Counted from the first letter of the stretch, positions 6,407 to 32,000 are shown. The stretch is DNA of 32,000 bases from Deinococcus radiodurans R1 = ATCC 13939 = DSM 20539 (GCF_000008565.1 NC_001264.1:256346-288345); one strand, 5' to 3'. Made by a program: numbers and translations. Notes: a model not told the origin generated them from the letters alone.

Positions 6407-8203
<1,797 letters not shown>

Positions 8204-9369: not shown

Positions 9370-9830
9370 CGACCCCTTCCAAATCGACGGCGCCCACTGA
9401 CGAGGCCGGCAGCGACCTCACCTTCTACACCACCGCCGAACTCGCCCGCGAGGCGGGGGTCACCCGGCGCACGGTGATGCACTACGCCGAAATCGGCCTG
9501 CTGCCGCCCGACCAAGTGACGGCCTCGGGCCGGGTGCTGTACGCGCCTTACTCACTGCGGCTGCTGCGCGACCTGATTGACCTGCGGGCCCTGGGAATGA
9601 CGCTGGAAGAATCGCGCGACATGGTGACCCTGCGCCGCGCCACCCACGCCCCCGACGGCACCTACCGCCGCGACTGGGTGCGCGAGGACGTGCCGCTGAG
9701 CGACGAGCAGCTTCAGCGCCTTCAGACCCGGCTGCATGTCCTGAACAGCGCCTACGAGCGGCAAAAGGACAACCTCGCCCGCTTTGACCGCTGGCTGACG
9801 AAGCGGTTCGTGGCGACGCGCGACAGTTAA
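9366..9830 (+). CDS. MerR-family transcriptional regulator
   Basis: The TTG start at 9366 overlaps the qor TGA (TTGA). The HTH is YTTAELAREAGVTRRTVMHYAEIGLLPP. The only in-frame internal Met (M38, within the HTH) would truncate the HTH, so the TTG start is preferred. Confidence 0.75.
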   Translation: MTTPSKSTAPTDEAGSDLTFYTTAELAREAGVTRRTVMHYAEIGLLPPDQVTASGRVLYAPYSLRLLRDLIDLRALGMTLEESRDMVTLRRATHAPDGTYRRDWVREDVPLSDEQLQRLQTRLHVLNSAYERQKDNLARFDRWLTKRFVATRDS

Positions 9831-9856
9831 GACGCCGCTCGATAGCAGCAAGAGAA

Positions 9857-9892
9857 AAGAGCGCAGGCCATCGCATCGGCCTGCGCTCTTTT
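9857..9892 (+). terminator. Intrinsic terminator of the merR-like gene
   Basis: aagagcgcaggcc (9857-9869) pairs perfectly with ggcctgcgctctt (9878-9890) and is followed by tt. Confidence 0.75.
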
Positions 9893-9915
9893 GGGTGGAG
9901 GCATAAATTTGGCGC

Positions 9916-11247
9916 TGGTCTGAACCAATGGTTCGTGCAGTTTTAGGCGGCTTTAAGTCCGAAATCCAGCGGACTGAACGGCGAATTCGCTCATTCTTCA
10001 AAGCGAGCCGAGAGGTCCAGATTGGATAAAATGACCTGGGCCAGCAGGGCGTTATACGCCCTGCGTTTCATGTCTTCGAGACTGAACACCAGATCCTGCC
10101 CGCCACCTGCCGCTCGCAGGGCCTCCAGTCGGCAAAGATTCAGGGTCAGCAGCACCACGTTCCAATGCGCCTCGATGCCCTGCTGTGACCGCAGTTGCAC
10201 ATCCTGGCCCCCCAGGAACTGTTTGGCATCCCGGAAGATCAGTTCGATCTCAAAGCGGCTTCGATACAGCGCCATGACCTCATGAGCCGGCATGGTCACA
10301 GCGGTGCTGAACAGCACCGCGTAGCCGGTGACCTGACCCTTTTTACCAATCTGCTGAATGACGACTGCGCGCACTTCCCGCGCCCACTGCACGCTCCAGA
10401 CCACCTGCGTCCACACCCGCTCAGTCGGCCTTGCAGAGACGAGGTCGAAGCGCTGCAGGTCACTGAAGTCCACCTTACCGTCGAACTTCTTCTTTCGCCC
10501 CCGTCGTCTGGGATGCTCACCGGTGTAGAGGTCGTTGAGGTTGGCGTTGCGAGGCAATCTGGAGATAAACGGGAGACCGTGACCCGTCACGGTCTCCACG
10601 ATGGGTTCCTTCGCGTAATTCCCGTCGGCAACGACAGCAGCCAGATCAAGCTGTTGAACAGTCCGGAGATCGAGCAGCACGTCATCCAGCTGATCGGCGG
10701 CCTGTTCCAGACGAGTTGGAGCCTCAGACCCGGTCAGGGTCTGACGGACATCGACCGTCAAGGCCTGCCGGTGCTGGACATCAATGAGGGCACAACAGGA
10801 TTGCTCGATTCCGCGTTCGGTCCGCGCGGCACAGCCATTCCAGAACGAGCCGAGGTGTGCGGTGTGCTGACCGGCTTTGCGGTGAAAAGAGGCGTCGATG
10901 GCCAGAACGCACAGTGGGCTGATCAGCCCACTCTCGATTGCTGTACTGACAGTCGCCTGGTGTAACGCGCCCCACGGAATGGCCCCATCGTCACTTCGGT
11001 GCAGCCAACGACGAATCGTACTCTCCGAGCAGGCTGCATACCGGGAGAGATTCAGGGCGTTCAGCCGTCCAGGAACAGCGAGAAAAACGCTGAGCAGCAC
11101 GGTCAGGAAATTCCGCTGCGTCTTGCGCAGCGGGACCGCGCTGAGAACGTACTGTAGGATGGCCATCAGACCCATTGGAAGCGGTGATTTCACAGCTCCA
11201 TTTTCAATGGGTCTTTCCTTTTGGGCTCAAAACTGCACGAACCATTG
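9916..11247 (-). mobile_element. Intact IS4-family insertion sequence (1332 bp) with a 6-bp target-site duplication
   Basis: Terminal inverted repeats are caatggttcgtgcagtttta (9916-9935) and caaaactgcacgaaccattg (11228-11247), matching at 19 of 20 positions. The direct repeat ctgaac flanks them at 9910-9915 and 11248-11253. A single transposase ORF lies inside. Confidence 0.9.
9991..11193 (-). CDS. IS4-family DDE transposase
   Basis: 400-aa ORF with a GTG start at 11193 (alternative ATG at 11175). Candidate DDE residues are in LAIDASF, VVADGNY and the Y-x2-R-x3-E-x6-K (YREK) motif YRSRFEIELIFRDAK, which is diagnostic of IS4-family enzymes. Confidence 0.9.
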   Translation of the reverse strand: MKSPLPMGLMAILQYVLSAVPLRKTQRNFLTVLLSVFLAVPGRLNALNLSRYAACSESTIRRWLHRSDDGAIPWGALHQATVSTAIESGLISPLCVLAIDASFHRKAGQHTAHLGSFWNGCAARTERGIEQSCCALIDVQHRQALTVDVRQTLTGSEAPTRLEQAADQLDDVLLDLRTVQQLDLAAVVADGNYAKEPIVETVTGHGLPFISRLPRNANLNDLYTGEHPRRRGRKKKFDGKVDFSDLQRFDLVSARPTERVWTQVVWSVQWAREVRAVVIQQIGKKGQVTGYAVLFSTAVTMPAHEVMALYRSRFEIELIFRDAKQFLGGQDVQLRSQQGIEAHWNVVLLTLNLCRLEALRAAGGGQDLVFSLEDMKRRAYNALLAQVILSNLDLSARFEE

Positions 11248-11253
11248 CTGAAC

Positions 11254-11316
11254 GCCCCCTCACCCCTTTGCTTCGCAAAGGCCCTCTCCCACAAGGGGAG
11301 AGGGTAGAAAAAGCAT
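11254..11316 (-). repeat. Small non-coding repeat, truncated copy C (inverted orientation)
   Basis: ccctcacccctttgcttcgcaaaggccctctcccacaaggggagagggta is the reverse-complement counterpart of the core of copies A and B, with an internal deletion. It directly abuts the right target duplication of the IS. Confidence 0.6.
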
Positions 11317-13674
11317 TTACTCCGAAAGCTGCACCACCGTCCGCGTCGGGTCGGCTTCGATTTCAGGCTGGGTAAAGGGCAGTTTGACCCACTCACTGCG
11401 CGAGAACAGCCGCGTCTGGTCGCTGAAGTAGGGCGACTCGGGATTGCTCGACTGGCTGTAGGTCAGCACGGCTTCGGCCTGGACGCCGCTGTCGGTGAAG
11501 CCCACCGTCTGGATATAGCTGCTCGCGTTGCCGACGACGCCCCGGTAGCCACCCGGAGCGAGCGGGTTGAAGTCGATTTTGTCGAGCACGCCCTCGAACT
11601 CGGCGCCGCCGGGGAGCGAGATGAAGTCGCCGCCGCGCACCACGCCCTGCACCTCGCCCAGCGGGGCGTCGAAGGGAATGCCAGCGGCAGTCAGGGCGGC
11701 GGCGGCTTCCCGCAGAGCCCCCAGCAAGGCCGTCTGGGCAGCGGGGTCCGCCGTGTTCAGGCCGCGCGGCGTGTTCACCGGGTCGGCGGGGTCGAAGGGC
11801 ACCGCGTAGACGTTGGGAATCGCCCGCGCCCGGCGCCAGAATTCGCGCCAGAGGGCCGCGCCCCGGCTTTCCTGCGAGCTGCGGCGGTCCCAGGCCGCGA
11901 GCGCGTTGCAGGCGGGTTGCAGCTCGGCGCCGCCTGCCGACTGGCACAGCTTGGCCGCGTCGGCAGCGTACATTTCGCCCGTGAGATTGCTCTCGCGCAG
12001 CAAGGTCGCCTGCAAGGTCGGAATGTCGAAGGTCCGGCCCGGCAGGCCATCCGTGCCGCTCAGGCGCCGCCCGATTTCCAGCAGGCCCATGCGGGTACGC
12101 GGCGACTGCGGGGCGTTGACCTCGCCGACAAGCGGGTCGAGGCCGGTTTGCGGCGCGGCGGGGTTGGCGAGCCACGCGCTGTTGTTGGAGTTGGCGACGA
12201 AATCCTGGCGAATCAACACCGGCATCTTGTCCGGCGCCCGCAGCCCCGGCACCCGCGAGGCAGGGTCGGTTTTCCAGTCGCAGGCCGAGTGGCTGCCGTC
12301 GAGCACGGCCAGCCCCGCCGCCGGAAACAGCGGCGCGAGCGGCGGAGGCGTGCAGGCCTGCTGCTGCGCCGCCGACACGTTGGGCGAACTGGAAATGTCG
12401 GCGTAGAGCGCGCTGCCCGCCCGGTCCGCCGCGATGGTGTTGACCCAGGGAATGCCCTGCACGTTCAGCGAGGCGCGGATGTCCCGCACGCTCTTGGCCC
12501 CGGCGAACCCCAGCCAGGTGGCGAGCATCCGGGTGTTGTTGCGGTTGGCGTCGCGCAGCGCGAAGGCGTACTGCGGTGTCCAGGTCAGCCCGGCGGCGGG
12601 CAGGTTGACGAGCGGCCCCTCGGGCGTGAAATACACCGTGCGGGTGTGCAGGCGCGGACCGTTGGCCGTCTTGACCTCGATGACAGCGGTGCGGCGTTGC
12701 AGTCGGCGTTGCTGGCCGTCCTTGACATAGCTCAGCGGGTCACCGGGCACCAGCGTGAGCGCCGCGAGGGTAAAGCGCTTGTCGGTGGACACGGTGTGCG
12801 TCCAGGCCACGTCCTGATTGAAGCCGATGTTGACGACCGGCATCCCGCCCAGGCTGGCGCCCATCACGTCGAACTGGCCCGGCAGGGTGAGGTGCAGTTG
12901 GTAAAAGCGGTTCGACGTTTCCCAGGGAAAATGCGGGTTGCCGAGCAGCAGGCCGCGTCCGTTCGTCGTCGCCTCGCTCCCGAAGGCCCAGCCGTTGCTG
13001 CCGATGGGCAGGTCGTTGAAGCGGTACTGCCGGTTGAAGGCGGCGAGGTCAGGACGCGGCGCCGCCGTGCTGGCCCCCGCCTGAGGAGGCCGGGCGCTGG
13101 TAATGGCGCTCACCATGGCCCCGGCGCTCGCCTGAATGGCCTTCTCTTCCCCGAGGCGCATCACGTCGAGTTCGGTCAGGGGCCGCACCCAGTCGGCGTT
13201 CCGGCAGGCCGAGGGCCACTGCTCCGGCGGCGTGTCGCGCAGGTAGCGGTTGACGCCCGCCACGTAGCCGCGCATCAGCGCGAGAATCTGCGGCTGGTCG
13301 CGGTAGCCCGCCTGCAAGCGGCCCGGCTCGATGACGGTCTTGAAAAACACGTCGCTGTCGAGGTTGTTTACCGGCTGAAAGCCCACCACCGTCTTGCCCT
13401 CGGCCCCCAGAAACTTGGAGCGCTCGCCGCGCACGGTCATGACCTGGTCGGCGAGCAGACAGAGGTTGTCCTGCGCGTAGCTGTAGCCCACGCCGTAGCC
13501 GATGCCGCCGAGGTCGGACGCCTGAATATGCGGAATCCCGTGGGCGGTGCGCTGAATCTGAACCTGATAGGTCTGGGCGCTCGCCGCCCCGCCGAGCATG
13601 AGGGGGCCGAGCAGCAGAGAGCCGAGCAGCAAACGCGCGGGAAGCGAGACGGAAGAAAAGGGGGAACGCGACAT
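11317..13674 (-). CDS. Secreted Ntn-hydrolase acylase of the penicillin amidase / acyl-homoserine-lactone acylase family
   Basis: 785-aa ORF with ATG at 13674 preceded by GGAGG. The signal peptide is LLLGPLMLGGAASAQT. The N-terminal region IQRTAHGIPHIQA and the putative beta-subunit nucleophile context GSNGWAFG are typical of this family. Confidence 0.8.
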   Translation of the reverse strand: MSRSPFSSVSLPARLLLGSLLLGPLMLGGAASAQTYQVQIQRTAHGIPHIQASDLGGIGYGVGYSYAQDNLCLLADQVMTVRGERSKFLGAEGKTVVGFQPVNNLDSDVFFKTVIEPGRLQAGYRDQPQILALMRGYVAGVNRYLRDTPPEQWPSACRNADWVRPLTELDVMRLGEEKAIQASAGAMVSAITSARPPQAGASTAAPRPDLAAFNRQYRFNDLPIGSNGWAFGSEATTNGRGLLLGNPHFPWETSNRFYQLHLTLPGQFDVMGASLGGMPVVNIGFNQDVAWTHTVSTDKRFTLAALTLVPGDPLSYVKDGQQRRLQRRTAVIEVKTANGPRLHTRTVYFTPEGPLVNLPAAGLTWTPQYAFALRDANRNNTRMLATWLGFAGAKSVRDIRASLNVQGIPWVNTIAADRAGSALYADISSSPNVSAAQQQACTPPPLAPLFPAAGLAVLDGSHSACDWKTDPASRVPGLRAPDKMPVLIRQDFVANSNNSAWLANPAAPQTGLDPLVGEVNAPQSPRTRMGLLEIGRRLSGTDGLPGRTFDIPTLQATLLRESNLTGEMYAADAAKLCQSAGGAELQPACNALAAWDRRSSQESRGAALWREFWRRARAIPNVYAVPFDPADPVNTPRGLNTADPAAQTALLGALREAAAALTAAGIPFDAPLGEVQGVVRGGDFISLPGGAEFEGVLDKIDFNPLAPGGYRGVVGNASSYIQTVGFTDSGVQAEAVLTYSQSSNPESPYFSDQTRLFSRSEWVKLPFTQPEIEADPTRTVVQLSE

Positions 13675-13805
13675 GGAAGCCTCCGGGAAAAAGAAAAGGG
13701 CAAGGCACGGCCCGTGGGGACCGCGACACTGAACTAGAAATGGACGGGCGGCAGTCTACCCCCAGCGGCGCCGGGAGAGGGCAAATGGCCGTCAATAAAT
13801 CGCTG

Positions 13806-13934
13806 TTAGAGCATTTGACAGAATGATCTGGTCTGTCTTTGACCCTCTACCTTGATGGGACTCGGAGAGCTGCACCGCAGAGAGGGCCTTGCGAAGCAAG
13901 GGGTGCAGGTGTCTTTTTCTGTCAAATGCTCTAA
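13806..13934 (+). repeat. Small non-coding repeat (MITE-like), copy B with perfect 18-bp terminal inverted repeats
   Basis: ttagagcatttgacagaa (13806-13823) is the exact reverse complement of ttctgtcaaatgctctaa (13917-13934). The interior is homologous to 6174-6304. Confidence 0.8.
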
Positions 13935-13937
13935 AGC

Positions 13938-13972
13938 AGAGGGGAACACGCAGCGGTCACGTGCTCCCCTCT
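13938..13972 (-). terminator. Strong stem-loop downstream of paaK (candidate terminator)
   Basis: agaggggaacacg (13938-13950) pairs with cgtgctcccctct (13960-13972) at 12 of 13 positions. It lies 34 nt after the paaK stop. There is no clean T-run. Confidence 0.45.
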
Positions 13973-14005
13973 CCAACAGGCTGCCAATCCCCGTTTTTCT
14001 TCCGC

Positions 14006-15286
14006 TCAGCGGTCGCCGCGCAAGTCGGTGACGCGGCGCAGCTTGCCGCCCTCACTGCGGGGGAGGCTGCCGGGTACGTGCAGTTCGCAGCGCACCGTCA
14101 CGCCCACCTGGGCCTTGATCTGGCGCTCGATTTCCTGGCGCAGGGCGGCGCTTTCGCTCAGGGCTTCGATTTGCAGCGTCAGGTCGTCCATGATGCCGGT
14201 GCGGGTCAAGATGACGTGGTAGTGCGGGCTGGCCTGGCCCATGCCGAGCAGCACCGCTTCGAGCTGCGTGGGGTACACGTTGACCCCGCGCAGGATAATC
14301 AGGTCGTCCGAGCGGCCCCGGATCTGGTCCATGCGGCGCATGGTGCGCCCGGTGCCGTTTTGGGCGGGCAGCAGCCGGGTAATGTCGCCGGTCCAGTAGC
14401 GCAGCACCGGCAACGCGGTGCGGGTCATGCTGCTCAGAACGAGCACGCCCCACTCGCCGTCGGGCAGCACTTCGCCGGTGTCGGGGTCCAGAATCTCGGG
14501 GTAGAAGTGGTCTTCCCAGAGGTAACTGCCCCGCTGCTCGCTCACGTCCTCGTTGCTCACGCCGGGGCCGATGATTTCGGACAGGCCGTAGATGTTGGTC
14601 GCCTTCACGCCCAGCCGGGCTTCGACCTCGGTGCGGGTCTTGTTGGACCACGGCTCGGCGCCCAGCACCGCGTATTGCAGCGAGATGTCTTCCGGGCGCA
14701 TCCCGCAGCGGCCCAGCGCCTCGGCCAGCACCAGCGCGTAGCTCGGCGTGCAGGCGATGATCTGCGGTTCGAGGTCCTGAATAAGCTGCACCTGCTTCTC
14801 GGTGCCCCCGCCCGAAATGGGCACGGTGCACATGCCCAGCCGCTCGGCGCCGCCGTGGGTGCCCAGGCCGCCGGTAAACAGGCCGTAGCCGTAGGCGTTG
14901 TGGAACGTCATGCCGGGGCGCCCGCCCGCCGCGTAGAGGCTGCGCGCCACCACGTCGGAAAAGACGTTCAGGTCGTTGGCATCATAGGCCACCACGGTCG
15001 GTTTACCCGTGGTGCCGCTGCTCGCGTGGATGCGGCGCAGTTGGTCGCGGTCCGTCGCCAGCAGCCCCAGCGGATAGTTTTCGCGCAGGTCGCTCTTGCG
15101 GGTCAGCGGAAAGCGGGCGAGGTCGTCGAGCGTCTGTAGGTCGTCCGGGCGCACGCCCAGGGCATCGAATTTGGCGCGGTAGGCGGGCACGCGCTCGTAT
15201 TGCCGCGCCACCATGACTTGCAGTTGCGCGAGTTGCAGCGCGCGGAGCTGGGGCAGGGGCAGGGCCTCACGTTCAGGTTGAAACAA
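14006..15286 (-). CDS. paaK: Phenylacetate-CoA ligase family protein (PaaK / coenzyme F390 synthetase-like)
   Basis: 426-aa ORF with a TTG start at 15286 preceded by GAGGTG. Regions ...RFPLTRKSDLRENYP..., SSGTTGKPTVV and the C-terminal GKLRRVTDLR are typical of PaaK-type adenylating enzymes. Confidence 0.85.
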   Translation of the reverse strand: MFQPEREALPLPQLRALQLAQLQVMVARQYERVPAYRAKFDALGVRPDDLQTLDDLARFPLTRKSDLRENYPLGLLATDRDQLRRIHASSGTTGKPTVVAYDANDLNVFSDVVARSLYAAGGRPGMTFHNAYGYGLFTGGLGTHGGAERLGMCTVPISGGGTEKQVQLIQDLEPQIIACTPSYALVLAEALGRCGMRPEDISLQYAVLGAEPWSNKTRTEVEARLGVKATNIYGLSEIIGPGVSNEDVSEQRGSYLWEDHFYPEILDPDTGEVLPDGEWGVLVLSSMTRTALPVLRYWTGDITRLLPAQNGTGRTMRRMDQIRGRSDDLIILRGVNVYPTQLEAVLLGMGQASPHYHVILTRTGIMDDLTLQIEALSESAALRQEIERQIKAQVGVTVRCELHVPGSLPRSEGGKLRRVTDLRGDR

Positions 15287-15423
15287 GGAAAGAACACCTC
15301 CGGGACGGTCCAGCAGGACCAGACAACAGAATCTGAATTGAGACTTGTCCCGAATTGTAAACCCCTAACGAACGTTTGGTTGGTTGTTGCCCAGAGGAGT
15401 GCCGCCCGCTCTCCGCCAGCCAT

Positions 15424-15448
15424 AAAAAATCCCCCCGATGTGGGGGGG
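15424..15448 (-). terminator. Intrinsic terminator after the ankyrin gene
   Basis: On the minus strand, ccccccc / gggggga arms (15442-15448 and 15430-36) are followed by tttttt (A-run 15424-15429 on the + strand). The structure lies about 24 nt after the stop at 15472. Confidence 0.7.
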
Positions 15449-15471
15449 CCAGAGAAAACTGAAGCGGCGGT

Positions 15472-16014
15472 TCAACCCGAGCTGCGGGCCAGCCGTTCTT
15501 CAAGCCACGTCACCGAAGGCTGCGCGTTCATGGTGCGGGCGGCGTCGAGGGCGCTGGTGCCCGCGCTGTCCCGCGCTTGTAGGTCGGCGCCTCGCTCCAG
15601 CAGCAACTCCAGAATGTCGAGCCGGGCAAACATCGCCGCGAACATCAGGGCGGTGCGGCCCGTCGGCCCGCGGCTTTCCACGTCTACACCGTGGTCGAGC
15701 AGCAGTTGCACCATCGGCAGCTCGCCCTTGAAGGCGGCGGCTTGCAGCGGCGTCTGGCCCATGTCGTTGGCGATAGAGGCGTCGGCGCCGCGTTCGAGCA
15801 GCAGCCGAGTCGCGTCGAGATGGCTGTGGTAGACAGCGAGCATCAGCAGGGTGTCACCCTTCTGATTGCGGACATTGAGCGGCAGGCCCTGGTCGAGCAT
15901 CACGCGCAGTTCGGCGGCGTCGCCGGCACGGGCGACTTCAAAAGCGCGTTGCAAAAATTCGAGCACCTGACGGTCGAGGTCTGTGGGCGCAGAAGATGAG
16001 GTCATCGGAAACAC
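15472..16014 (-). CDS. Ankyrin-repeat protein
   Basis: About 4 ANK repeats are present (GDTLLMLAVYHSHLDATRLLLERGAD, GQTPLQAAAFKGELPMVQLLLDHGVD, GRTALMFAAMFARLDILELLLERGAD, GTSALDAA). The start is GTG at 16014 or ATG at 16005. Confidence 0.85.
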   Translation of the reverse strand: MFPMTSSSAPTDLDRQVLEFLQRAFEVARAGDAAELRVMLDQGLPLNVRNQKGDTLLMLAVYHSHLDATRLLLERGADASIANDMGQTPLQAAAFKGELPMVQLLLDHGVDVESRGPTGRTALMFAAMFARLDILELLLERGADLQARDSAGTSALDAARTMNAQPSVTWLEERLARSSG

Positions 16015-16026
16015 GTCCTTGGGGGC

Positions 16027-16761
16027 TTAGCGCTTGGGCGCGGGGCGGTAGAGCTGCACGAACGCTTCACCGCGCGGCACCGGACGGCTGCCCAGCACGC
16101 GGCGCACGTCGGCGTCGGCGGGGAGGGGGGTCACCTCGCCCTTGCCGGCCACCTTGAGGTAAGGCGCGAGCGCGGGCGCGGTGTCGGCCATCTGGCGGAA
16201 GCTGGCAGCGGGCAGCGTGTCGCGGAAGGGACCGTACCCGCTGAGCTGCGAGAGCAGGGTGAGGTGCTGCGCCTCGCTGGCGGCGATCTGGGCCATCGTC
16301 GCGGCGAGTTCGGGCTGCGCGGCGGCGAGCTGGTGGGCCGCGCCGAGGTAAGCGCTGGTCGAAATCTGCTCGAGCTTGAGCGCGGTGTCGGCAAAGACGC
16401 CCGCGTCAGTCAGCAGCCGCGCCGGGAGGGCAAACGACGCCGTGAGCGGGCGGCCCCCCAGCGAGCACAGCAGTTCGAGGTGATGCGACTCGGCGGCGAG
16501 CACGCCGCGCAGGTCGTCGGCGGTTTCGGGGGTCAGCATGAAGCTGGCGTGACTGAGCACCTGAAAGTACAGGGTGACAGACAGCGCCTCGGCGGTGGCC
16601 GCGAGGTCGAGCACGGAACTCTGCTTGCCGACGGGCGCCCCGGCGCCGCCCAGGCCGAAAGCGTCACTGAAACTCGCGGCGACGGCGGTTCCGGCGAGGC
16701 CGCGCAGGAAGGTACGGCGACTGCCTTCGTGGGGTCTGCCTGTCTTGAGATCATCGGTCAT
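16027..16761 (-). CDS. Tat-exported ferritin-like domain protein (Ferritin_2-like)
   Basis: The ORF is open to 16893, but the ATG at 16761 is preceded by GAGGAA. The twin-arginine signal is SRRTFLRGLAGTAVAA. Paired four-helix-bundle-type motifs are AESHHLELL and SEAQHLTLL. Confidence 0.7.
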   Translation of the reverse strand: MTDDLKTGRPHEGSRRTFLRGLAGTAVAASFSDAFGLGGAGAPVGKQSSVLDLAATAEALSVTLYFQVLSHASFMLTPETADDLRGVLAAESHHLELLCSLGGRPLTASFALPARLLTDAGVFADTALKLEQISTSAYLGAAHQLAAAQPELAATMAQIAASEAQHLTLLSQLSGYGPFRDTLPAASFRQMADTAPALAPYLKVAGKGEVTPLPADADVRRVLGSRPVPRGEAFVQLYRPAPKR

Positions 16762-20289: not shown

Positions 20290-22049
20290 ACTTCCGCCCC
20301 CAGATAGGCTTCGCGCACCGCCGGGTTGCTGCGAACCTGCTGCGGGCTGCCCTGCGCGAGTTCCTGCCCGCTGTTCATGACCACCAGACGGTCCACCAGA
20401 TTCATGACCAGGTCCATGTCGTGCTCCACGATGAGGATGGTGACGCCTTCGTCGCGCAGTTTCCTGAGCAGCGTCGCAAGCTCCTGTTTTTCTCCGAAGC
20501 GCAGCCCCGCCGCCGGTTCGTCGAGCAGCAGGAAACTGGGGTCGGCGACCAGCGCGCGGGCGATTTCGAGCAGCCGTTGCTGGCCGAGCGCGAGGTTGCC
20601 GGCCTGCTCGTAGGCTTGCTCGCTCAGGCCGACGCGTTCGAGTTGTGTGAGCGCGAGCCCTTGCAGCGCCGCTTCCTCGCCGCGCTCGAGGTGCAACATG
20701 CTTCGCAGCAACCCGGCCTGACCACGGGCGTAGCCGCCCATCATGGTATTTTCGAGCAGCGAGAGTTCGGGAAACAGCTTGACGTGCTGAAAGGTCCGCG
20801 CCACGCCGAGGCGGTGAATCGCCCGCGCCGGCAGCCGCCCGGCGTCGTGGCCCAGCACTTCCACCGTGCCGGAGGTCGCCGGGTTGACGCCCGTGACGAG
20901 GTTGAACATGGTGGACTTGCCCGCCCCGTTCGGCCCGATGAGGCCCACGATTTCGCCCGCGTTGACATCGAAGCTCACGTCGTTGACGGCCTTGAGCCCG
21001 CCGAACTGCTTGACGGCGTTGCGTACTTTCAGTATCGGACTGCCGGGCGCCGGGGTGGGCCGGTGCGGAAAAGTCACGGCCCGCGCCAGCAGCCGGGGCT
21101 TGCCCGCCGGGACAAAGCGCTCGATAAGCGGCCACAGCCCGCGCCGGGCAAATTGCAGCGTCAGGATAATGAGGATGCCGAGCACGACGATTTCGTAGTT
21201 GGTGTTTTCACCGAGCAGCCGGGGCAGCACGTCCTGCAAGACCTCGCGCAGCAGGGTGATGAGCACCGCGCCCGCCACGCCGCCCCAGACGTAGCCGCTG
21301 CCGCCGATAACCGCCATAAAGAGGTACTCGATGCCCACGTTCAGCCCGAACGGCGTGGGATTCACGAAGCGCTGCTGGTGGGCGTAGAGCCAGCCCGCCA
21401 CCGACGCCATGACCGCCGAGAGCACGAACACCTGCACGCGCAGGGCAAAGGTATTGGCCCCGAACGCCTCCGCCACCACCGGCCCGGTTCGCAGCGCCCG
21501 CAGCGCCCGCCCGAAGCGGCTGGAAAGCAGAAACTGGGCGGCCACGATGGTCAGCGCCAGAAACGCCAGCGCCAGATAAGCGAATTCGCGCGGCTGGTCG
21601 AGCACCCTGCCGAAAAAGCTGACCGGCGGAATCTCGCGGATGCCGGTAAAGCCGCCGAGCGCGGGCGTGTTGCCGAACACGTAATACAAACTGATGCCCC
21701 AGGCAATCGTCGCCAGCGGCAGGTAGTGCCCCTGCATCCTCAGCGTGATGAGGCCGAGGATATTGGCGACGGCGGCGGTGAGCAGCATCCCCGCCGGCAG
21801 CGTGAGCCAGGGGCTCCAGCCGTATTTGGTGGTGAGCAGCGCGGTGGTGTAGGCGCCCACGCCCATGAAGGCCGCTTGCCCGAACGAGGTCAGGCCCGAA
21901 ATGCCCGTCAGCAGCACCAGCCCGATAACGGTGATGGACACGATGGCGATGTTCGTGAGCAGCGTGACCTGAAACACCGGCAGGACCAGGGGCAGCACCA
22001 GCGCCAGCACGGCGGCGATAATGGCGAGCAGCGTGCGCGGGCGCATCAC
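20286..22049 (-). CDS. Fused branched-chain amino-acid ABC permease (LivM-like) and ATP-binding (LivG-like) protein
   Basis: 587 aa. The N-terminal ~330 aa is hydrophobic and permease-like. The C-terminal ~250 aa carries GPNGAGKST, the FQH Q-loop, [15 protein letters not shown] and LLLDEPAAG. The start is GTG at 22049 or ATG at 22046, overlapping the livH stop. Confidence 0.88.
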
Positions 22050-23095
22050 TCTTCCTCCTCGTCATGGTGCCGGGTGGAGAGGGAACGCCACAGCAGCACC
22101 GGCAAAATCAGGGTGAACACGATGACTTCTTTCCACTGGCTGAGGCTGAAACTGGCGTAACTCTCGATGAGGCCCACCAGCAGCGCCCCGATGGCGGCCA
22201 GCGGAAAAGACGCCAGCCCGCCGATAATCGCGCCGACAAAGCCCTTGAGACCGATGAGGAAGCCGGTGTCGTACCCGATGGGGAACTTGGGGCCGATGAG
22301 CAGGCCGCTCAGCACGCCCATCAAGGCCGCCACCGTAAAGGCGAGTGACCCGGCGAACTCGGGCCGAATGCCCACCAGCCGCGCGCCCAGCCGGTTCACG
22401 GCGGTGGCCCGCAGCGCCTTGCCGAGCAGCGTGCGCTCGAAAAAGACGGCGAGGCCCGCCATCAGCGCCAGCGAAACGACCATGACGAGCAGGTTCTGGT
22501 AACTCAGCGAAAAGCTGCCGATGTGGAGATCACCGCTGACGAAGGCGGGCGTGTTGCTGCCCTCGGCGCCGAAGAACGCAAGCCCCAGCCCGGTGAGCGC
22601 GAGGTGCAGCGCGACCGAGGCGATGAGCAGCACCAGCACGGTGGCGTTGCGAAGCGGCTGGTACACCACGCGGTAAAGCAGCGGCCCCAGCGGCACGACG
22701 AGCAGCAGCGTCAGCAGCACCTGCACCGCCAGTGGCGCCTTGAGCGGCGCGAGCCAGCCGGTCAGCGCCCACAGCAGCGCCCAGGCGCCCAGGCCAATCA
22801 GGACACTTCGCAGCGCCGCTTGAGTGTGCCCGGCGCGCAGCGACTGTACCACGTTCAGAATCACGCTCAGGGCGAGCAGCGCCAGTACCAGTTTCAGCGT
22901 GCCGGGCACCTTTCCTGCTTGCAGGCTCGCCAGCGTCAGCGCCCCGAACATCACGAATTCGCCCTGCGGAATAAAAATCACGCGGGTCACGGCAAACACC
23001 AGCACCAGCGCCAGCGAAAGCAGCGCGTACACCGCGCCGTTCGTCAGCCCGTCGGTGGTCAGGATGGGAAAAATGGTGGGGTCAAAAATATCCAC
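22046..23095 (-). CDS. livH: Branched-chain amino-acid ABC transporter permease (LivH-like)
   Basis: 349-aa polytopic membrane protein. The N-terminus [37 protein letters not shown] is typical of LivH. It ends in an acidic tail, HHDEEEE. Confidence 0.88.
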
Positions 23096-23214
23096 AGCGG
23101 GCCCTTTCTCGAATCAAAACCCCTCTCCGGCGGCGCGGGCAAAAAAGCTCCGCAAGGCAGGAGAGGGCGTCGCGTGGCGGTGGGAGGGAGGTATTCCCCT
23201 CCCCCCCTCGGCAC

Positions 23215-24354
<1,140 letters not shown>

Positions 24355-24658
24355 GGGGAATCCTCCAAAGGAAAAAGTCAGCGCCAGGACTCGCCGGACA
24401 CCACAACAAATTGAACTGAACGAACGGATGTTAGCAAAAGCTTGAGGCAGTTCACATCCAGCTTGCACAGCCCGCAACTGTCTAGCCAAATGTCAGAAAT
24501 CTAGAAAAGTTTGGCGCGGTTCTGCCTCCCCGCTGCGGAACGCGCTAAACTCCGGTCATCCACCAACCATCTGGGTGCCGTGAACCGGCCAGTCGGCGGA
24601 GGGCAGTGCTGCCCTTTCTTCTCTTCCTGGCAGGCCATGGCATCTGCTCAGGAGACCT

Positions 24659-26361
<1,703 letters not shown>

Positions 26362-26393
26362 GCGACTGAATTCACGACCACATTTTTCCAAAA

Positions 26394-26429
26394 GCGTCCC
26401 GGCCTCCTTGTGCCGGGCGCTTTTCTTTT
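26394..26429 (+). terminator. Intrinsic terminator after the acyl-CoA ligase gene
   Basis: gcgtcccggc (26394-26403) pairs with gccgggcgc (26412-26420), with one bulge. It is followed by ttttctttt (26421-26429). Confidence 0.7.
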
Positions 26430-26431
26430 GG

Positions 26432-26576
26432 GCTGGGAAGTTGAGCTGGGAAGGCAGACAAACCACCCAGCGTTCTGAAGAAAATCTGCTGGCTTTCTTT
26501 CTTTCTTGCCACCTCCTGCTAGAGTCGCTCTTGAGACTCTTTGTCAGGTCAGGCTCTCCCACGGCGCTGACCTGAC
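26432..26576 (+). promoter_or_regulatory. Leader/promoter region of the three-gene module, containing direct and inverted repeats (candidate RHH operator sites)
   Basis: The direct repeat gctgggaag occurs at 26432-26440 and 26445-26453. A (cttt)3 tract lies around 26494-26507. The palindrome agagtc/gactct is at 26521-26526 and 26535-26540. A perfect 10-bp inverted repeat, gtcaggtcag (26543-26552) and ctgacctgac (26567-26576), ends 6 nt before the RBS GAGGAGG (26583-26589). Confidence 0.45.
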
Positions 26577-26595
26577 GCGCCGAGGAGGTGCCGAC

Positions 26596-26802
26596 ATGTC
26601 CCCCCAGGACCCCCGTAACGTCCTGCCCGATCCCCACGAATCTGTTTCCGCCTCCAGCACCGACCCGCTCGAACCGTTCAACAGCCGCCTGCCACGCAGT
26701 TTGCAGCGGCGGCTGCGGGTGTACGCCGCGCTGCATGACCGCAAAATTCAGGACGTGCTGGGCAGCGCCCTCGACGAATACCTGCGCCAGCGGGAGGAGT
26801 AG
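26596..26802 (+). CDS. Small ribbon-helix-helix (CopG/Arc/MetJ-like) DNA-binding protein
   Basis: ATG at 26596 lies 6 nt after GAGGAGG (26583-26589); the TTG at 26506 listed in the track is less likely. The protein is 68 aa. The C-terminal 40 aa, FNSRLPRSLQRRLRVYAALHDRKIQDVLGSALDEYL, fits a strand-helix-helix pattern. Confidence 0.65.
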   Translation: MSPQDPRNVLPDPHESVSASSTDPLEPFNSRLPRSLQRRLRVYAALHDRKIQDVLGSALDEYLRQREE

Positions 26803-26805
26803 GCC

Positions 26806-28353
26806 ATGCCGCCGGACTCCCCTCTGGGCACCCTGGCCGATGTGAGCGCGCCGCCCGGCCCCGCCGCGCAGATCGTGGCTGAGGAACGCTCGGTGTTCCT
26901 GCCGACCCGCGAACTGGCGCTCGAAGTCTGGCTGGGCGAGCAGCGGCTGTCGTTTTTCATCAACGGCAACCGTGACCGCGTGCCGCACATCGAGCAGCTC
27001 ACGTCGGCAGGGGTCAGCATTCGCCTGACCGACTGGGTAGGCCGCCTGCCCTTCCGGCTGGTCTACGAGGACAGCGAAGAAGTGCAGGAAGTGGTCGTTT
27101 ACCCCGCCAAGCTCTCGCGCACGCCGGGCACCGCGTTTGCCGCCCTGGCGCGGATGGTGGCCGAGCTGCCCGAGTTGCAGCGGCGGCTGCACTTCGAGGG
27201 GGGTGACCTGCCCGAAGCGCTCAGCGGGGTGCAGACCCTGTGGACGGTGCCGCTGCGCGCCCAGGACCTGCTGGAGCTGGCCGGAGAAGCGTGGCAACTG
27301 TGGCAACTCGCCCGGCGGCAGCCGCGCCCGGCGCACAGCGCGCAGGCCGGACGCGCCCGCGAGCGCGTGGTGCTGGGCGGACAGGTGCCCGACCGGGTGG
27401 ACTGGAACCGCACGCTCGACCTGTGGGGCCGCGGCGAGTTTCCGCACCACGTCGCCCTCGACCTGCCTGCGCCGCAGCCGCCGCCCGCGCTGGCCGCCCT
27501 GCGTGAGCTGTGGCAGGCAATGGAAGAGGCCGCCGCGCAACTCGCTCCTGGCCCTGAGCGCGACGAGGTGCAGAGGCGTTTTGCCCGCGCCCTGGCGGAG
27601 TTTCCCCGGCCTGACCCGGCAAGCACGCCTGCTGCGGCCCGGCCCGGCCCCCCGGCCCGCGACCCCCTGTCGCGCCGCGCCGCGCAGCTCACCGCCGAGG
27701 TGCGTTCGCTCACCCGGCCCACCAGCGGGCTGCCGGGGGGGCGGGTCCGCATGGCCGAGCTGTACGAGTTCTGGGCGCAGATGACGCTGGCGCGGGTGTT
27801 CGGCGCCGTGCAGGGCGAGCTGTCCACCACCGCCGACGGCCTCTACACCGGCACCCTCCGCAGCGAGACCGGGCCCCTGCACAGCGACGCAGAGCCGAAC
27901 GAAACGCAGCCCTGGGCCACCGTGTCGCTCAATCCCCGGCTGATGTTCAGCGGCATCGGCTCGTCCTCGCAGACCTTGCAGCCCGACCTGCTGGCGGTGC
28001 TGGGGCAGGGCGCCGGGAGCGAAGTCGTGGTGGCCGACGTGAAATACCGACCCCTGGACCGCCTGGGCACCGACCACCAGCGCGAAATCAACGACCAGTT
28101 GCTGCGCTACATGGGCCTGACCCACGCCGCCACCGGGCTGGTGCTGTGGCCCGGCAGCGACCCCGAGGCGGACCTGGACGGCGCCGCGCCCCCCGACCCC
28201 ACGACTGACCGCCGCCTGAGCATCTTGCCGGGAGGCCGCGCCCGGCTGGTGCGGCTGCGGCTGCATCCCCTCGATCCGCCGCACCACCTTGACGACGACC
28301 TGCGCGACCTCGGGCTGCTGCCTGAGCGCCCTGAGCCCCACCCGGAGAACTGA
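26806..28353 (+). CDS. McrC/DUF2357-like protein with C-terminal PD-(D/E)xK nuclease core
   Basis: ATG at 26806 lies 8 nt after GGGAGGAG. The protein is 515 aa. The N-terminal McrC-like strand motif is VVVYPAKL. The nuclease motifs are AELYEFW (from 27757), QPD (D at 27985), VVADVKY (D-x-K at 28036-28044) and QLLRY (to 28110). Confidence 0.7.
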   Translation: MPPDSPLGTLADVSAPPGPAAQIVAEERSVFLPTRELALEVWLGEQRLSFFINGNRDRVPHIEQLTSAGVSIRLTDWVGRLPFRLVYEDSEEVQEVVVYPAKLSRTPGTAFAALARMVAELPELQRRLHFEGGDLPEALSGVQTLWTVPLRAQDLLELAGEAWQLWQLARRQPRPAHSAQAGRARERVVLGGQVPDRVDWNRTLDLWGRGEFPHHVALDLPAPQPPPALAALRELWQAMEEAAAQLAPGPERDEVQRRFARALAEFPRPDPASTPAAARPGPPARDPLSRRAAQLTAEVRSLTRPTSGLPGGRVRMAELYEFWAQMTLARVFGAVQGELSTTADGLYTGTLRSETGPLHSDAEPNETQPWATVSLNPRLMFSGIGSSSQTLQPDLLAVLGQGAGSEVVVADVKYRPLDRLGTDHQREINDQLLRYMGLTHAATGLVLWPGSDPEADLDGAAPPDPTTDRRLSILPGGRARLVRLRLHPLDPPHHLDDDLRDLGLLPERPEPHPEN

Positions 28354-28354
28354 C

Positions 28355-30325
28355 ATGAACTTCACGACTATTTTTGCCCAGTACAAGATTGCCCGCGAAA
28401 CTTTGGCCACCCTTTCTCCCGAGCAGCAAGAAGCGCTGGAGCGCGCAGCCTGGGGCGCCGACTGGTCTACCGATGCGGGCGGGGGAATGCTTTCGCCGTT
28501 GCTGCCGTTGCAGATGCCGCCGGACCCCGAGCCGGGTGGCGCGGCGCCGCCGCAGACGCGAGCGCTCGACTTTCCCTGGGCCGACCGCGCGACGGCGGGG
28601 CAAGCGCGGCAGGCGGCGCAGGCCCAACTGGTGGTGTTCGACGTGTCGAGCGCGGCGCCGCTCGGCGGAGAAATGCGGCTGATTCACTCGGCGCATTTTG
28701 CCGACATGCAGGGCGACCCGCTGATCGCCTACGCGCCCGCGCCGCACAAACTGGGCCAGCAGGTGATTCAGGCCGAGCGCGCAGACATGGGCCTCGGCCA
28801 GCTCACCCGCACCACCGTCTTCGCTTACCGCGCCCTGCCGCCGGGACAGGAGGTGCGAACGCTGGAAGCGCGGCTGGTCTTTTTGCCGCGCAAGAATCAG
28901 GTGAGCAAGGTGCGTTGGCTGGCGGCTTACGACCACCAGTTGCAGGTGCAGGGCGGCGAAACGCGGCATGTCTGTCAACTGCGAGCGGCGCTCGACCAGG
29001 AAGGCAACGGCAAGCGCAGTTTTCACGCCTCCACCCTGGGCAGCACCCAGCTCAGCCCCCTGGCGCTGCACGCCCTGAGCGCGGGCGGCACCCGGCCCTA
29101 CGCCACGCTGGAAAACGAAACCGCCCCGGCGCCCACCCCGGCGGCGCGGCACCTGCTCGACGAACTGCTCAACCCGCCGGTGCCCGCGCCCCCCAAGGTC
29201 AAGCCGCCCAAACCTCCCAAGCCGCCGAAGGCGAACCGCAAGGCCAAGCCCGCGCCCGTTGCGCCGGAACCTGTGGAAGCCGCATCTCCTCCTGAAGAAC
29301 CTGCCGCCGAGCCGCCCGCACCCGCTGCGCCAGTCTCGGAAGCCCCAGCCACCGACATTCCAGCCCCTGAAGTCCCAGCCACCGAACCTCCCGCGCCGCA
29401 GCCCGCGCCCGACCCCTGGGCCGCCATAGATGCCCGAATTGCGGTGGACGAGGACGTGCTGGCCGTGTCACGCGCCGCGCTCGAACGGCGCCGGCCTCTG
29501 CTGCTGACCGGCGCGCCCGGCACCGGCAAGACGCTGCTCGCCACGCTGCTGGCCGAGGTGCTGTGCGGCCCTGGCAACTTCACGCTGGTCACCGCCGACG
29601 CCCGCTGGACGAGCAGCGAGGTGCTCGGCGGCCTGCGGGTCATGCCCGGCGAGGGCCTGCGCTACAGCTTCGTGCCGGGGGTGGTCACGCGGGCGGCGCA
29701 GCGGCACCGCGAAAGTATGCAGGCGACCGGGCGGCCCCACGCCCTCATCATCGACGAATTCAACCGGGCGCATCAGGACGAGGCGTTCGGGCGGCTGCTC
29801 ACGCTGCTCGACCCCGCCTACCGTTCCCAGATGCCGTTGGTGGGCGTGCAGGACGGTGCCCCCGAGGACGTGTTTTTGCCCGCCGACTTCGTGCTCATCG
29901 CCACCATGAACGACGCCGACGTGGGGCGGCTGCATGAAATCGGCTCGGCCTTGCAGCGCCGCTTCGTGACGGTGCCGGTGGGGGTGCCTGCCGGGGAGCG
30001 CGCCTTTCTGGAACGGAGCTGGGCGCACCTGCCCGCCGGAACACTGGGGACGCTCTACGACTTCGTGGGCAGCGGCGACCCTGTCAGCGACCGTGAGGCC
30101 GGGCGACTGCGCGGGTTCGTGACAGTGGGGACCTTTTTCATGGAAGAGGTGCTGGGCATGGCGACCGATCTGGGCCTCGACCGGGCGCTGCGCAGTCAGG
30201 TGGCGCCGCAGCTCGGCAGCCTGGGCCGCAGCGACCTCGCCGCACTCGAAGCCCGCGCCCGGCAGACCGGCCTCCCCAAACTCGCCGCGCAACTGGCGAC
30301 GGCAGGGCAGCAAGCTCCGTTCTGA
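28355..30325 (+). CDS. McrB-like AAA+ GTPase with an unrecognised N-terminal domain and a Pro/Ala-rich linker
   Basis: ATG at 28355 lies 1 nt after the upstream TGA and is preceded by GGAG. Motifs are Walker A GAPGTGKT (29510-29533), Walker B LIIDEFNRA (D at 29753), the McrB-type signature TMNDAD (NxxD, N at 29909) and ALQRRF (around 29957). Confidence 0.8.
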   Translation: MNFTTIFAQYKIARETLATLSPEQQEALERAAWGADWSTDAGGGMLSPLLPLQMPPDPEPGGAAPPQTRALDFPWADRATAGQARQAAQAQLVVFDVSSAAPLGGEMRLIHSAHFADMQGDPLIAYAPAPHKLGQQVIQAERADMGLGQLTRTTVFAYRALPPGQEVRTLEARLVFLPRKNQVSKVRWLAAYDHQLQVQGGETRHVCQLRAALDQEGNGKRSFHASTLGSTQLSPLALHALSAGGTRPYATLENETAPAPTPAARHLLDELLNPPVPAPPKVKPPKPPKPPKANRKAKPAPVAPEPVEAASPPEEPAAEPPAPAAPVSEAPATDIPAPEVPATEPPAPQPAPDPWAAIDARIAVDEDVLAVSRAALERRRPLLLTGAPGTGKTLLATLLAEVLCGPGNFTLVTADARWTSSEVLGGLRVMPGEGLRYSFVPGVVTRAAQRHRESMQATGRPHALIIDEFNRAHQDEAFGRLLTLLDPAYRSQMPLVGVQDGAPEDVFLPADFVLIATMNDADVGRLHEIGSALQRRFVTVPVGVPAGERAFLERSWAHLPAGTLGTLYDFVGSGDPVSDREAGRLRGFVTVGTFFMEEVLGMATDLGLDRALRSQVAPQLGSLGRSDLAALEARARQTGLPKLAAQLATAGQQAPF

Positions 30326-30343
30326 ATATCCGGGGTTCAGCCC

Positions 30344-30940
30344 TCACAACAGGGTGAAGTAGCTGTCCCCCGCGCAGCCCCGGCACAGGGTTTCGTCTCC
30401 CTGCACCACCTCACGCTCGTTGACGATTTCCTCGCCGCAGCGGTCACACACGGCGCGTTTGCCGGCAGCACTGACGAGGGCCGCGAGGTCAAAGCGCAGG
30501 TCCACCGGCTGCACGTCGAACAGGTCGGCGTCCGGCCAGGTCTGGTAGGCGTCGAGGTACGCCTGATAGCGTGTTTGTCCCTCGGGGCGCCCGGCACGCA
30601 CCCGCGCCCGCAGGTCGGTCTGGGGCCGCACGCGCACCGCTCGCCCACTGCGGGTGTCCACCACCGCAGCGGCGACCTTGCCGTGGTCCACGAGCCGCAG
30701 CGTGCGCCGCCCCAGCCAGCAGCCGCTGCCCACGCTCACACCATCGGCGAAGCAGCCGTCGGTTTCGACGAAGACCAACGCCCGTTTGTCGCTGCGAGGA
30801 AAGTCCAGTCCCAGCGTCTCCCCCGCCAGCAGCGCCAGCCGCACGCCCAGCACCTGACGCGGGCAGAGGTGGCCGTGCAGCGCGCTGCTGCGGGCGAGCA
30901 GGTCGGCCAGGCGCGGGTCCGGCGGGGCGTGAGCGGTCAT
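30344..30940 (-). CDS. FmdE-family protein with C-terminal zinc ribbon
   Basis: 198 aa with ATG at 30940. The FmdE-like N-terminus is HGHLCPRQVLGVRLALLAG...VFVETDGCFADGVSV. The C-terminal CxxC...CxxC is CDRCGEE...LCRGCAG. Confidence 0.75.
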   Translation of the reverse strand: MTAHAPPDPRLADLLARSSALHGHLCPRQVLGVRLALLAGETLGLDFPRSDKRALVFVETDGCFADGVSVGSGCWLGRRTLRLVDHGKVAAAVVDTRSGRAVRVRPQTDLRARVRAGRPEGQTRYQAYLDAYQTWPDADLFDVQPVDLRFDLAALVSAAGKRAVCDRCGEEIVNEREVVQGDETLCRGCAGDSYFTLL

Positions 30941-31016
30941 TGGGCGCCAGTGTGGCGGACGGGCGGGCGGGCAATGGTCAGATGGAGCGCAAAAGAAGCG
31001 TGGGCAGAGGGCCGCC

Positions 31017-32000
31017 TTACCCTTCCCGGTCCAGCAATCGCCACGCCGTCACGTCGAGCAGGCCGCGCGGCGTCAGCTTGAGCGCCGGAATCACGCTCAG
31101 GCCGAGAAAACTCAGGGTGGTGACGGGATAGGGCAAGGTGCAGCCCAGCAAGCGCGCCGCCGCCGTCACCCGGCCCAGGGCAGCGGCGGCCTCGGCCGGA
31201 GGCTGGTCGGTCATCAGACCCGCGTAGGGCAGGGGCAACTGCTCGCGGACCTCGCCGTCCACGACCAGGACGATGCCGCCGCCGAGCCGTTCGAGCGCCC
31301 GACCCGCCGCGCGCAGGTCCGCGTCGCTGCCGCCGAGCAGGGCCACCTGATGCGCGTCGTGCAGAATGCTGATGCCCAGGGTGCCGCCGCGCAGGCCGCT
31401 GCCCAACGTCCAGCAGCTCGACCACTCGCCGCGCCCGTAGCGGTCGGCGACGACCAGCCGGGCGTCTCCGCTGCCCGGCGCCGCACGCCCGGTGACGATC
31501 TGGTCGGGAAACATCTGGAGCGTGGGCCAGTGCGCGGGCGGATCGAAGGTGGCCCCGTCCCAGCCGGGCCCGAGGTCGACGCCGCCACCGGGCAGGGGGG
31601 GCGTCTCGCCGCCGGGCCGCGCTTCCTCGCCGCCCACGAAGGTTTCCAGCACCCCGAAGTGTTGCAAGTCGCGCAGCAGCACGAAGTCGGCGTGATACCC
31701 AGGGGCGATCACCCCGAGGTCGTGCAGGCCCCAGTATTTCTCGATACCGCGCGCCCGCTGCGCTTCCCGCACGTCCTGCACGGTCTGCGCGACCACCGGA
31801 ATAAAGCGCAGGGTGAGCGACACGGCGAGGCTCACCCGCGCCGGATTGACCCCCAGCCGGGCCAGCGGCAGGGCGGCCCGTTCCAGTCCGGCCAGCAGCG
31901 CCGAAGTGCGTGTGGTGAGCGTGACCAGCGAGGCGAGCAGAATCATCACCCCGAAGCGCAGGGCGGTGACGACAGCGGTTTCCCAGTTCGTCAGCAGCCC
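31017..32000 (-). pseudogene. Chimeric ORF: an EcfT/CbiQ-type transporter segment fused in frame to the C-terminal domain of adenine deaminase (5' end outside the window)
   Basis: The reading frame is open to the window edge. The upstream part, ...TNWETAVVTALRFGVMILLASLVTLTTRTSALLAGLERAALPLARLGVNPARVSLAVSLTLRFIPVVAQTVQDVREAQRARG, is EcfT/CbiQ-like. From about 31740 downstream, GVIAPGYHADFVLLRDL... plus about 230 aa resembles the end of the amidohydrolase fold and the C-terminal domain of adenine deaminase. Confidence 0.55.

Follow-up and report, generated by a model that had tools for sequence, protein, structure and literature searches.

What does an unfamiliar domain do at the front of a GTPase whose relatives use that position to choose their targets? 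McrB motors swap N-terminal reader domains, and the reader decides the target of the system. We analyzed a 32,000-nucleotide stretch of Deinococcus radiodurans R1 (NC_001264.1:256346-288345, referred to as the window and numbered from its first letter) encoding a 656-amino acid McrB-family AAA+ GTPase at 28355..30325 on the plus strand. A preliminary description of this DNA had set apart the first ~270 residues of the protein (28355-29173) as a domain fitting no known reader and as a possible new specificity or sensor module. Structure prediction and family alignments indicate that residues 1-268 (28355..29158, plus strand) are a genuine, compactly folded alpha+beta domain under purifying selection, beyond what chance would give. 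The domain matches no known family or solved structure among the libraries searched. On balance, we narrowly favor the interpretation that it recognizes the target in a Type IV-like restriction system of the McrBC kind, acting with an McrC-like nuclease partner.

The N-terminal domain is predicted to be well folded and its start is consistent across species. The ATG of the motor gene at 28355 lies 1 nt past the stop of the upstream gene, with GGAG ca. 8 nt 5' of it. The homologous methionine is the start in orthologues of eight other Deinococcus genomes, and the NCBI annotation of D. wulumuqiensis uses the same start. With an alignment of 17 sequences, AlphaFold2 yields a model of the domain with a predicted local distance difference test score (pLDDT) of 92.5 and a predicted template-modeling score (pTM) of 0.90. 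All five models reach at least 90.5 and no residue falls below 50, so that the region does not show the disorder which the preliminary description had named as evidence against a sensor domain. A model obtained with only 2 sequences had a pLDDT of 31 and was discarded. The alternating beta-like segments described earlier are present as ca. 12 strands, but the predicted fold is mixed alpha/beta and includes eight helices too, and the domain ends near residue 268 (nt 29158) instead of residue 273. In its first half, a strand (2-12) is followed by two helices (14-18 and 22-34), two strands (50-53 and 67-70) and a helix (78-87). The second half consists of strands 89-102 and 108-116, a helix (131-145), four long strands (152-161, 166-177, 182-199 and 202-214) and three helices (225-229, 234-241 and 262-269). 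Conserved motifs are distributed along the domain and comprise FAQYKI (7-12), DWxxDxxGxLLS (36-47), FPWxD (73-77), AYR (157-159) and LHALS (238-242). The ratio of nonsynonymous to synonymous substitution rates is 0.14 relative to D. wulumuqiensis and 0.21 relative to Deinococcus sp. VB343, similar to the motor domain (0.14-0.18). Across Deinococcus, the domain retains 33-86% identity. In the five loci more distant from the window protein, it is 33-45% identical compared to 62-67% for the motor, and this faster divergence is as expected of a specificity module.

Searches by sequence and by structure returned no known relative of the domain. Residues 1-273 give no significant match in Pfam, PADLOC, NCBIfam or PHROGs. 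The 17 family members scanned singly against Pfam likewise leave the N-terminal domain without a match, and the family profile finds nothing among all Protein Data Bank (PDB) sequences at E <= 10. Foldseek comparison of the predicted model with 350,542 PDB chains yields no match at E <= 1e-3 (best E 0.019, template-modeling (TM) score 0.12), and no match reaches this threshold in BFVD (best E 0.07). Among the matches listed, the START/SRPBCC-type structure 3rd6 is the only one with a root-mean-square deviation below 9 Å. Over its 115 aligned columns, the TM score normalized by target length is 0.35, short of what is usually taken to mean the same fold. Solved structures exist for the McrB N-domain and for YTH/EVE, SRA, B3-like and winged-helix readers, and these should therefore be within the PDB library searched. 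None of the DUF3578/ADAM, EVE/YTH/PUA, SRA, B3-like, winged-helix or NEco readers is found among the best 50 Foldseek-PDB matches listed. Direct hhalign comparison of the family with the N-domain of Escherichia coli McrB (residues 1-161) gives a probability of 0.1. The earlier statement that the domain cannot be assigned to a known modified-DNA reader, nuclease or helix-turn-helix protein thus holds in every one of these comparisons.

The motor carries all McrB signature motifs and is by motif an McrB-family (NxxD-type) AAA+ GTPase, in agreement with the preliminary description. The GTPase module spans residues 353-656 (29411..30325, plus strand), as judged by PF07728, PDB McrB matches and alignment with E. 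coli McrB. Residues 381-537 match the Pfam family PF07728 (AAA_5) at 5.7e-30, and the C-terminal half aligns with E. coli McrB in BLASTP at 4e-16. Four motifs are in register with the E. coli protein, all on the plus strand: Walker A GAPGTGKT (residues 386-393, 29510-29533; GPPGVGKT in E. coli), Walker B IIDEFNRA (residues 465-472, 29747-29770; IIDEINRA), the NxxD signature within MNDAD (residues 518-522, with N519-D522 at 29909-29920; MNTAD) and the RRF arginine motif ALQRRF (29948-29965; ALRRRF). The best single-domain PDB sequence matches are E. coli McrB (6hz4 at 2.4e-9 and 6ut6 at 5.5e-9) and Thermococcus gammatolerans McrB (6ut3 at 4.5e-6). McrB GTPases are set apart within the AAA+ proteins by the NxxD signature (PMC11090510), and each of the 11 complete family members checked has it. 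The NCBIfam McrB equivalog PRK11331 covers the motor region alone and scores 32.7 bits against a cut-off of 637, indicating that the window protein is a member of the McrB family and not an EcoKMcrB orthologue. None of the three proteins of the operon is assigned to a defense system by PADLOC. Assignment as a MoxR/midasin-type AAA_5 ATPase was rejected given the presence of NxxD and a neighbor that is a PD-DxK protein and not a VWA protein. PDB matches to midasin consist of many short stretches near the P-loop and related motifs, none of them individually significant. In two metagenomic relatives, P0012 and P0014, a cysteine-rich insertion of ca. 40 residues follows shortly past Walker A and may bind metal.

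The gene immediately upstream encodes a putative nuclease partner. This 515-amino acid protein (26806..28353, plus strand) is encoded directly 5' of the motor gene in every relative with upstream DNA examined, including distant members with 33% and 27% identity. Its C-terminal PD-DxK core is formed by D394 (27985-27987), D411 (28036-28038) and K413 (28042-28044), all on the plus strand. P393-D394 and K413 are invariant and D411 (D/E) is nearly so in 34 family members, with QLLxYMG following the core. The N-terminal two thirds of the protein match no known family but contain the conserved motifs RLTDWVGRL and VPDRVDW, and the first 380 residues are family-specific. UniRef names two orthologues 'DUF2357 domain-containing' and 5-methylcytosine-specific restriction component, and a search of PDB sequences with the partner returns ankyrin-repeat noise only. 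A run of seven G at 27729-27735 within the gene is six G long in the D. radiodurans isolate DRR11, whose annotation gives two overlapping hypothetical coding sequences in place of the gene. Either an error in sequencing the homopolymer or a frameshift that switches the nuclease gene on and off could account for this difference.

A low-complexity spacer connects the N-terminal domain to the motor. It comprises residues 269-352 (84 amino acids; 29159..29410, plus strand), consists of 37% Pro, 21% Ala and 11% Glu, and opens with a basic Lys/Pro-rich stretch, PPKVKPPKPPKPPKANRKAKPAP, at residues 279-301. Spacer length and sequence differ even between close species, with residues gained and lost between D. 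radiodurans and D. wulumuqiensis. In most relatives, the spacer is 58-106 amino acids long and mostly Pro/Ala-rich. That of P0012 is rich in Glu, Arg and Lys, and that of P0016 measures 494 amino acids and looks helical. With spacers of 58-494 amino acids across the relatives, a long tether between front domain and motor is a trait of the family.

To define the distribution of the domain, we carried out protein searches at several depths. A word-seeded search of 5.8 billion proteins, using the domain alone and a 7-sequence profile, recovered two relatives only, and a scan of one genome per species located nine Deinococcus loci. An exhaustive HMMER search of 1.84 billion representatives returned 17 proteins of which 16 are true relatives. 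The weakest match, P0017, was dropped as a repetitive translation artefact. All complete relatives share the order of N-terminal domain, spacer and McrB (AAA_5) motor, while the shorter ones represent truncated contigs or pieces of pseudogenes. The preliminary description had also proposed a search for the domain on other effectors. No such fusion is present among the 16 HMMER relatives, and only one motor type carries the domain. No homologue was detected in phage records by tblastn or in viral contigs by single-protein scan. Judged by sequence similarity, the N-terminal domain family is restricted to Deinococcus and a few metagenomic relatives. One of the two members with a cysteine-rich insertion lies beside the gene for ribosomal protein S15 on a contig of 46.6% G+C (L013), indicating that the family is not confined to high-G+C Deinococcus. 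The nuclease-motor pair forms a constant core while the flanking genes change between clades, being metabolic in D. radiodurans and coding for sugar transferases and glycan-binding proteins in the D. aquatilis group. Such cassette-like behavior speaks for the restriction-system interpretation.

The combination of an McrB-type motor, a PD-DxK partner and a tethered front domain suggests how the system may work. We infer a sensor role for the N-terminal domain from its position in the architecture, by analogy with characterized McrB proteins. Tethered N-terminal domains would attach to some feature of invading nucleic acid, with modified DNA as the most probable target, and the motor domains would assemble into a GTP-dependent ring. 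The McrC-like partner would dock on this ring, stimulate GTP hydrolysis and cut DNA. Nucleic-acid binding, the nature of the target, GTPase stimulation, cleavage and a role in defense are what we infer for the system as a whole.

EcoKMcrBC of E. coli K-12 is among the closest known systems. It and the Deinococcus cassette are two-gene systems with Walker A, Walker B, NxxD and RRF in register in the GTPase and with an extra N-terminal domain on the motor subunit. The Deinococcus PD-DxK triad also falls in register with the McrC triad in an hhalign alignment that is not significant, the E. coli residues being D244/D257/K259. In contrast, the E. coli McrB N-domain (DUF3578/ADAM) is unrelated by hhalign, and no 3SSC-type structure occurs among the Foldseek matches listed. 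The Deinococcus N-terminal domain is 268 residues long instead of about 160, and the spacer is 84 residues and Pro-rich instead of a short linker. Further differences are the reversed gene order, a partner of 515 instead of 348 amino acids whose N-terminal region has no DUF2357 match, and a ribbon-helix-helix (RHH) gene preceding the operon in the D. radiodurans clade. T. gammatolerans McrB, with its YTH/EVE-like N-domain, and the LlaJI-type homologues, with B3-like domains, similarly keep the GTPase and exchange the N-terminal recognition domain. The T. gammatolerans motor is among the PDB matches of the window protein given above. The N-domains of both are small readers built as beta-barrels or pseudobarrels, and their structures have been solved. 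The Deinococcus domain, however, matches neither by sequence nor by Foldseek. CoCoNuT systems resemble the family in having a long spacer between N-terminal modules and GTPase, and the charged, helical-looking spacers of P0012 and P0016 add to this likeness. CoCoNuT GTPases carry a shortened NxD signature and occur with extra helicase, HEPN or cold-shock components (PMC11090510), whereas the Deinococcus family has NxxD, a plain PD-DxK partner and, in most members, a spacer that is rich in Pro/Ala and not a coiled coil. As far as computation can show, the sensor interpretation of the preliminary description is supported. The cassette is McrBC-like but has its two genes in reversed order, a long tether, and a front domain of unassigned fold that is restricted to one lineage.

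Several observations weigh against a target-recognition module in a McrBC restriction system. The net charge of the N-terminal domain ranges from -5 to +2 in full-length family members, which is atypical of many DNA binders. In the clade of D. radiodurans, D. wulumuqiensis and VB343, the operon occupies a conserved place among metabolic genes with no obvious defense island. The genes adjacent to the operon, both in the window and in D. wulumuqiensis, include no methyltransferase and no other modification gene, so that no particular modification is indicated. For the partner, PF10117 (McrBC) lies over the PD-DxK motif in 30 of the 34 members, but all matches are below the 23.9-bit gathering cut-off (best E 4.4e-4). 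With hhalign, the motif registers with TDITI..VDAKY..YQLMNY of E. coli McrC at E 0.18, the comparison being non-significant with 7 as well as with 34 sequences, and DUF2357, the N-terminal domain of McrC, has no Pfam match in the 34 members at E <= 1. The McrC assignment is thus likely but not proven, resting on a short motif. Finally, the partner gene precedes the motor gene, the reverse of the usual order in which McrB lies upstream of McrC 'in most cases' (PMC11090510).

The strongest of the alternatives, though in our view an unlikely one, holds that the ligand of the domain is not modified DNA but, for instance, RNA, a particular DNA structure or a protein made by a phage, and that binding switches on motor and nuclease in a manner resembling abortive infection. 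The near-neutral charge, a fold unlike any known base reader by Foldseek and the lack of a linked methyltransferase would all suit such a ligand. The very long spacers, including the helical one of 494 amino acids, recall the McrB relatives with coiled coils, for which an action on RNA is predicted (PMC11090510). The motor is nevertheless of the NxxD type like DNA-acting McrB proteins and not of the NxD type of coiled-coil systems, and the partner retains a DNase-type PD-DxK core. In addition, the basic Lys/Pro stretch beside the domain would suit non-specific DNA contact, and neither the phage records nor the viral contigs hold a homologue hinting at mimicry of a phage protein.

Less probable still is a structural or regulatory module that serves motor auto-inhibition, assembly or the docking of the large N-terminal part of the McrC-like partner. 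The domain occurs solely with one motor and one partner type, as such a module would, and since the 380 N-terminal residues of the partner are family-specific as well, the two could have co-evolved as an interaction pair. However, this position is that of the DNA-recognition domain in characterized McrB proteins (PMC11090510; PMC2614495), a flexible spacer of 58-494 amino acids is better suited to a tethered binder that reaches out than to a regulatory contact of fixed geometry, and the domain diverges faster than the motor. The least probable alternative, a strongly diverged member of a known fold or reader family missed by the searches, is at odds with the poor best match among the 350,542 PDB chains (E 0.019, TM 0.12), the absence of known readers from the best 50 matches listed and a profile search of PDB sequences that is empty even at E <= 10.

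The McrC-like and McrB-like genes belong to an operon of three open reading frames that opens with a small RHH gene. This first gene (26596..26802, plus strand) encodes 68 amino acids, the intergenic gaps of the operon are 1-3 nt, and a Shine-Dalgarno-like sequence precedes each of the three frames, GAGGAGG being the one 5' of the RHH-gene ATG. An intrinsic-terminator-like hairpin with a T-run at 26398..26427 (plus strand; 6 G-C pairs followed by CGCTTTTCTT) closes the preceding coenzyme A (CoA) ligase gene, indicating that the three frames form their own transcription unit. The RHH protein matches PF21432 (56B_RHH) in Pfam at 1.8e-6, above the cut-off, and weakly matches an Arc-like repressor family in PHROGs, making it a candidate regulator of the operon by sequence. 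An orthologue with 61% identity was found by tblastn in the VB343-type genomes L002 and L003. D. wulumuqiensis has an annotated 68-amino acid hypothetical gene at the syntenic position, matched by size and place only. The RHH gene is thereby limited to the closest relatives, with none detected by tblastn in the remaining cassette loci. A perfect 10-bp inverted repeat, GTCAGGTCAG-N14-CTGACCTGAC, lies at 26543-26576 just 5' of the RHH-gene ribosome-binding site. This repeat is a possible operator or 5' hairpin, but neither D. wulumuqiensis nor Deinococcus sp. VB343 conserves it. A link to the DNA-damage regulon was set aside, the radiation/desiccation response motif having no match in the window.

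The same region is present in a second D. radiodurans isolate. Window positions 20354-31738 align with the 412,465-bp replicon of DRR11, named 'plasmid 3' in its record and equal in size to chromosome II of strain R1, at 99.97% identity with no mismatches and four single-base indels. In the NCBI annotations of D. radiodurans DRR11 and D. wulumuqiensis R12, the motor gene carries the name 'McrB family protein', and the two genes before it are listed as 'hypothetical protein'. Upstream of the operon, a long-chain-fatty-acid CoA ligase gene (24659-26361, plus strand) is split by a single-base deletion at 25373 and is intact in DRR11. Each half has a match to the AMP-binding model, at profile positions 2-189 and 205-384, with a further match to the C-terminal domain, and the split is either a sequencing error or a strain-specific pseudogene. 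Downstream, a convergent FmdE-family gene with a C-terminal DksA/TraR-type zinc finger (30344-30940, minus strand) ends with its stop 18 nt from that of the McrB-like gene. The pairing of the two genes is kept in D. wulumuqiensis, with nothing to tie them together functionally. The open reading frame at 31017-31949 (minus strand) is a chimera of a CbiQ transporter fragment (residues 2-70) and the C-terminal domain of an adenine deaminase (residues 163-302). It indicates a deletion or rearrangement junction. Identity between the window and DRR11 ends at 31738, and the two sequences differ beyond the junction.

The cassette loci of other species have notable neighbors of their own. In D. murrayi (L010), a CRISPR array of 16 repeats (GTTTTCCCCACGGGTGTGGGGATGGTCCG, period 61) at 6757-7700 ends ca. 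40 nt 5' of the McrC-like gene. Downstream of the same cassette, positions 11095-16383 encode a 1762-amino acid protein combining an RNase T-type exonuclease with DinG-like and DEAD/RecQ helicases. In D. lacus (L008, ca. 8676-11946), the cassette appears decayed, with the McrB-like frame broken into at least three frames, of which the public annotation keeps the fragments P0002 and P0053. It is flanked there by genes for an RNA repair enzyme of the Pnkp type and for an ATP-grasp/phosphoribosyltransferase protein associated with Ter operons.

D. radiodurans is a genetically tractable model whose low transformability is attributed to multiple restriction systems. The megaplasmid-encoded DraMcrBC (MP1, NP_051672.1) belongs to the same organism and the same motor family, while the window gene is located on the 412-kb replicon with a partner annotated as hypothetical only. 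In addition to the megaplasmid mcrBC, Fukuda et al. (2008) counted a further McrB homologue in D. radiodurans without a counted McrC, and they also noted that paralogues diverge at their N-termini. This extra homologue is probably the motor gene described here. The SLICER study targeted six D. radiodurans restriction-modification systems for deletion (PMC10085245) and the window operon is not among them, and the main text of a McrBC census published in 2024 contains no mention of Deinococcus (PMC11090510). No functional study of the window motor gene was found in the literature.

If the ligand of the N-terminal domain turns out to be an ordinary methylated base, the cassette would be a routine addition to a very diverse family. 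The predicted fold is itself a candidate for a new structural family. Knowing the ligand would extend the recognition modules of Type IV systems by a new one and could remove a barrier to engineering Deinococcus. A bolder possibility, to which we give only a small chance, is that the fold is truly new and that the domain reads either a nucleic-acid feature new to McrBC-type targets, such as a hypermodified phage base, a DNA lesion or a structure tied to the Deinococcus lifestyle, or a ligand that is not a nucleic acid. The domain would then represent a new class of Type IV-like specificity module, and the operon a seventh, overlooked restriction barrier in D. radiodurans.

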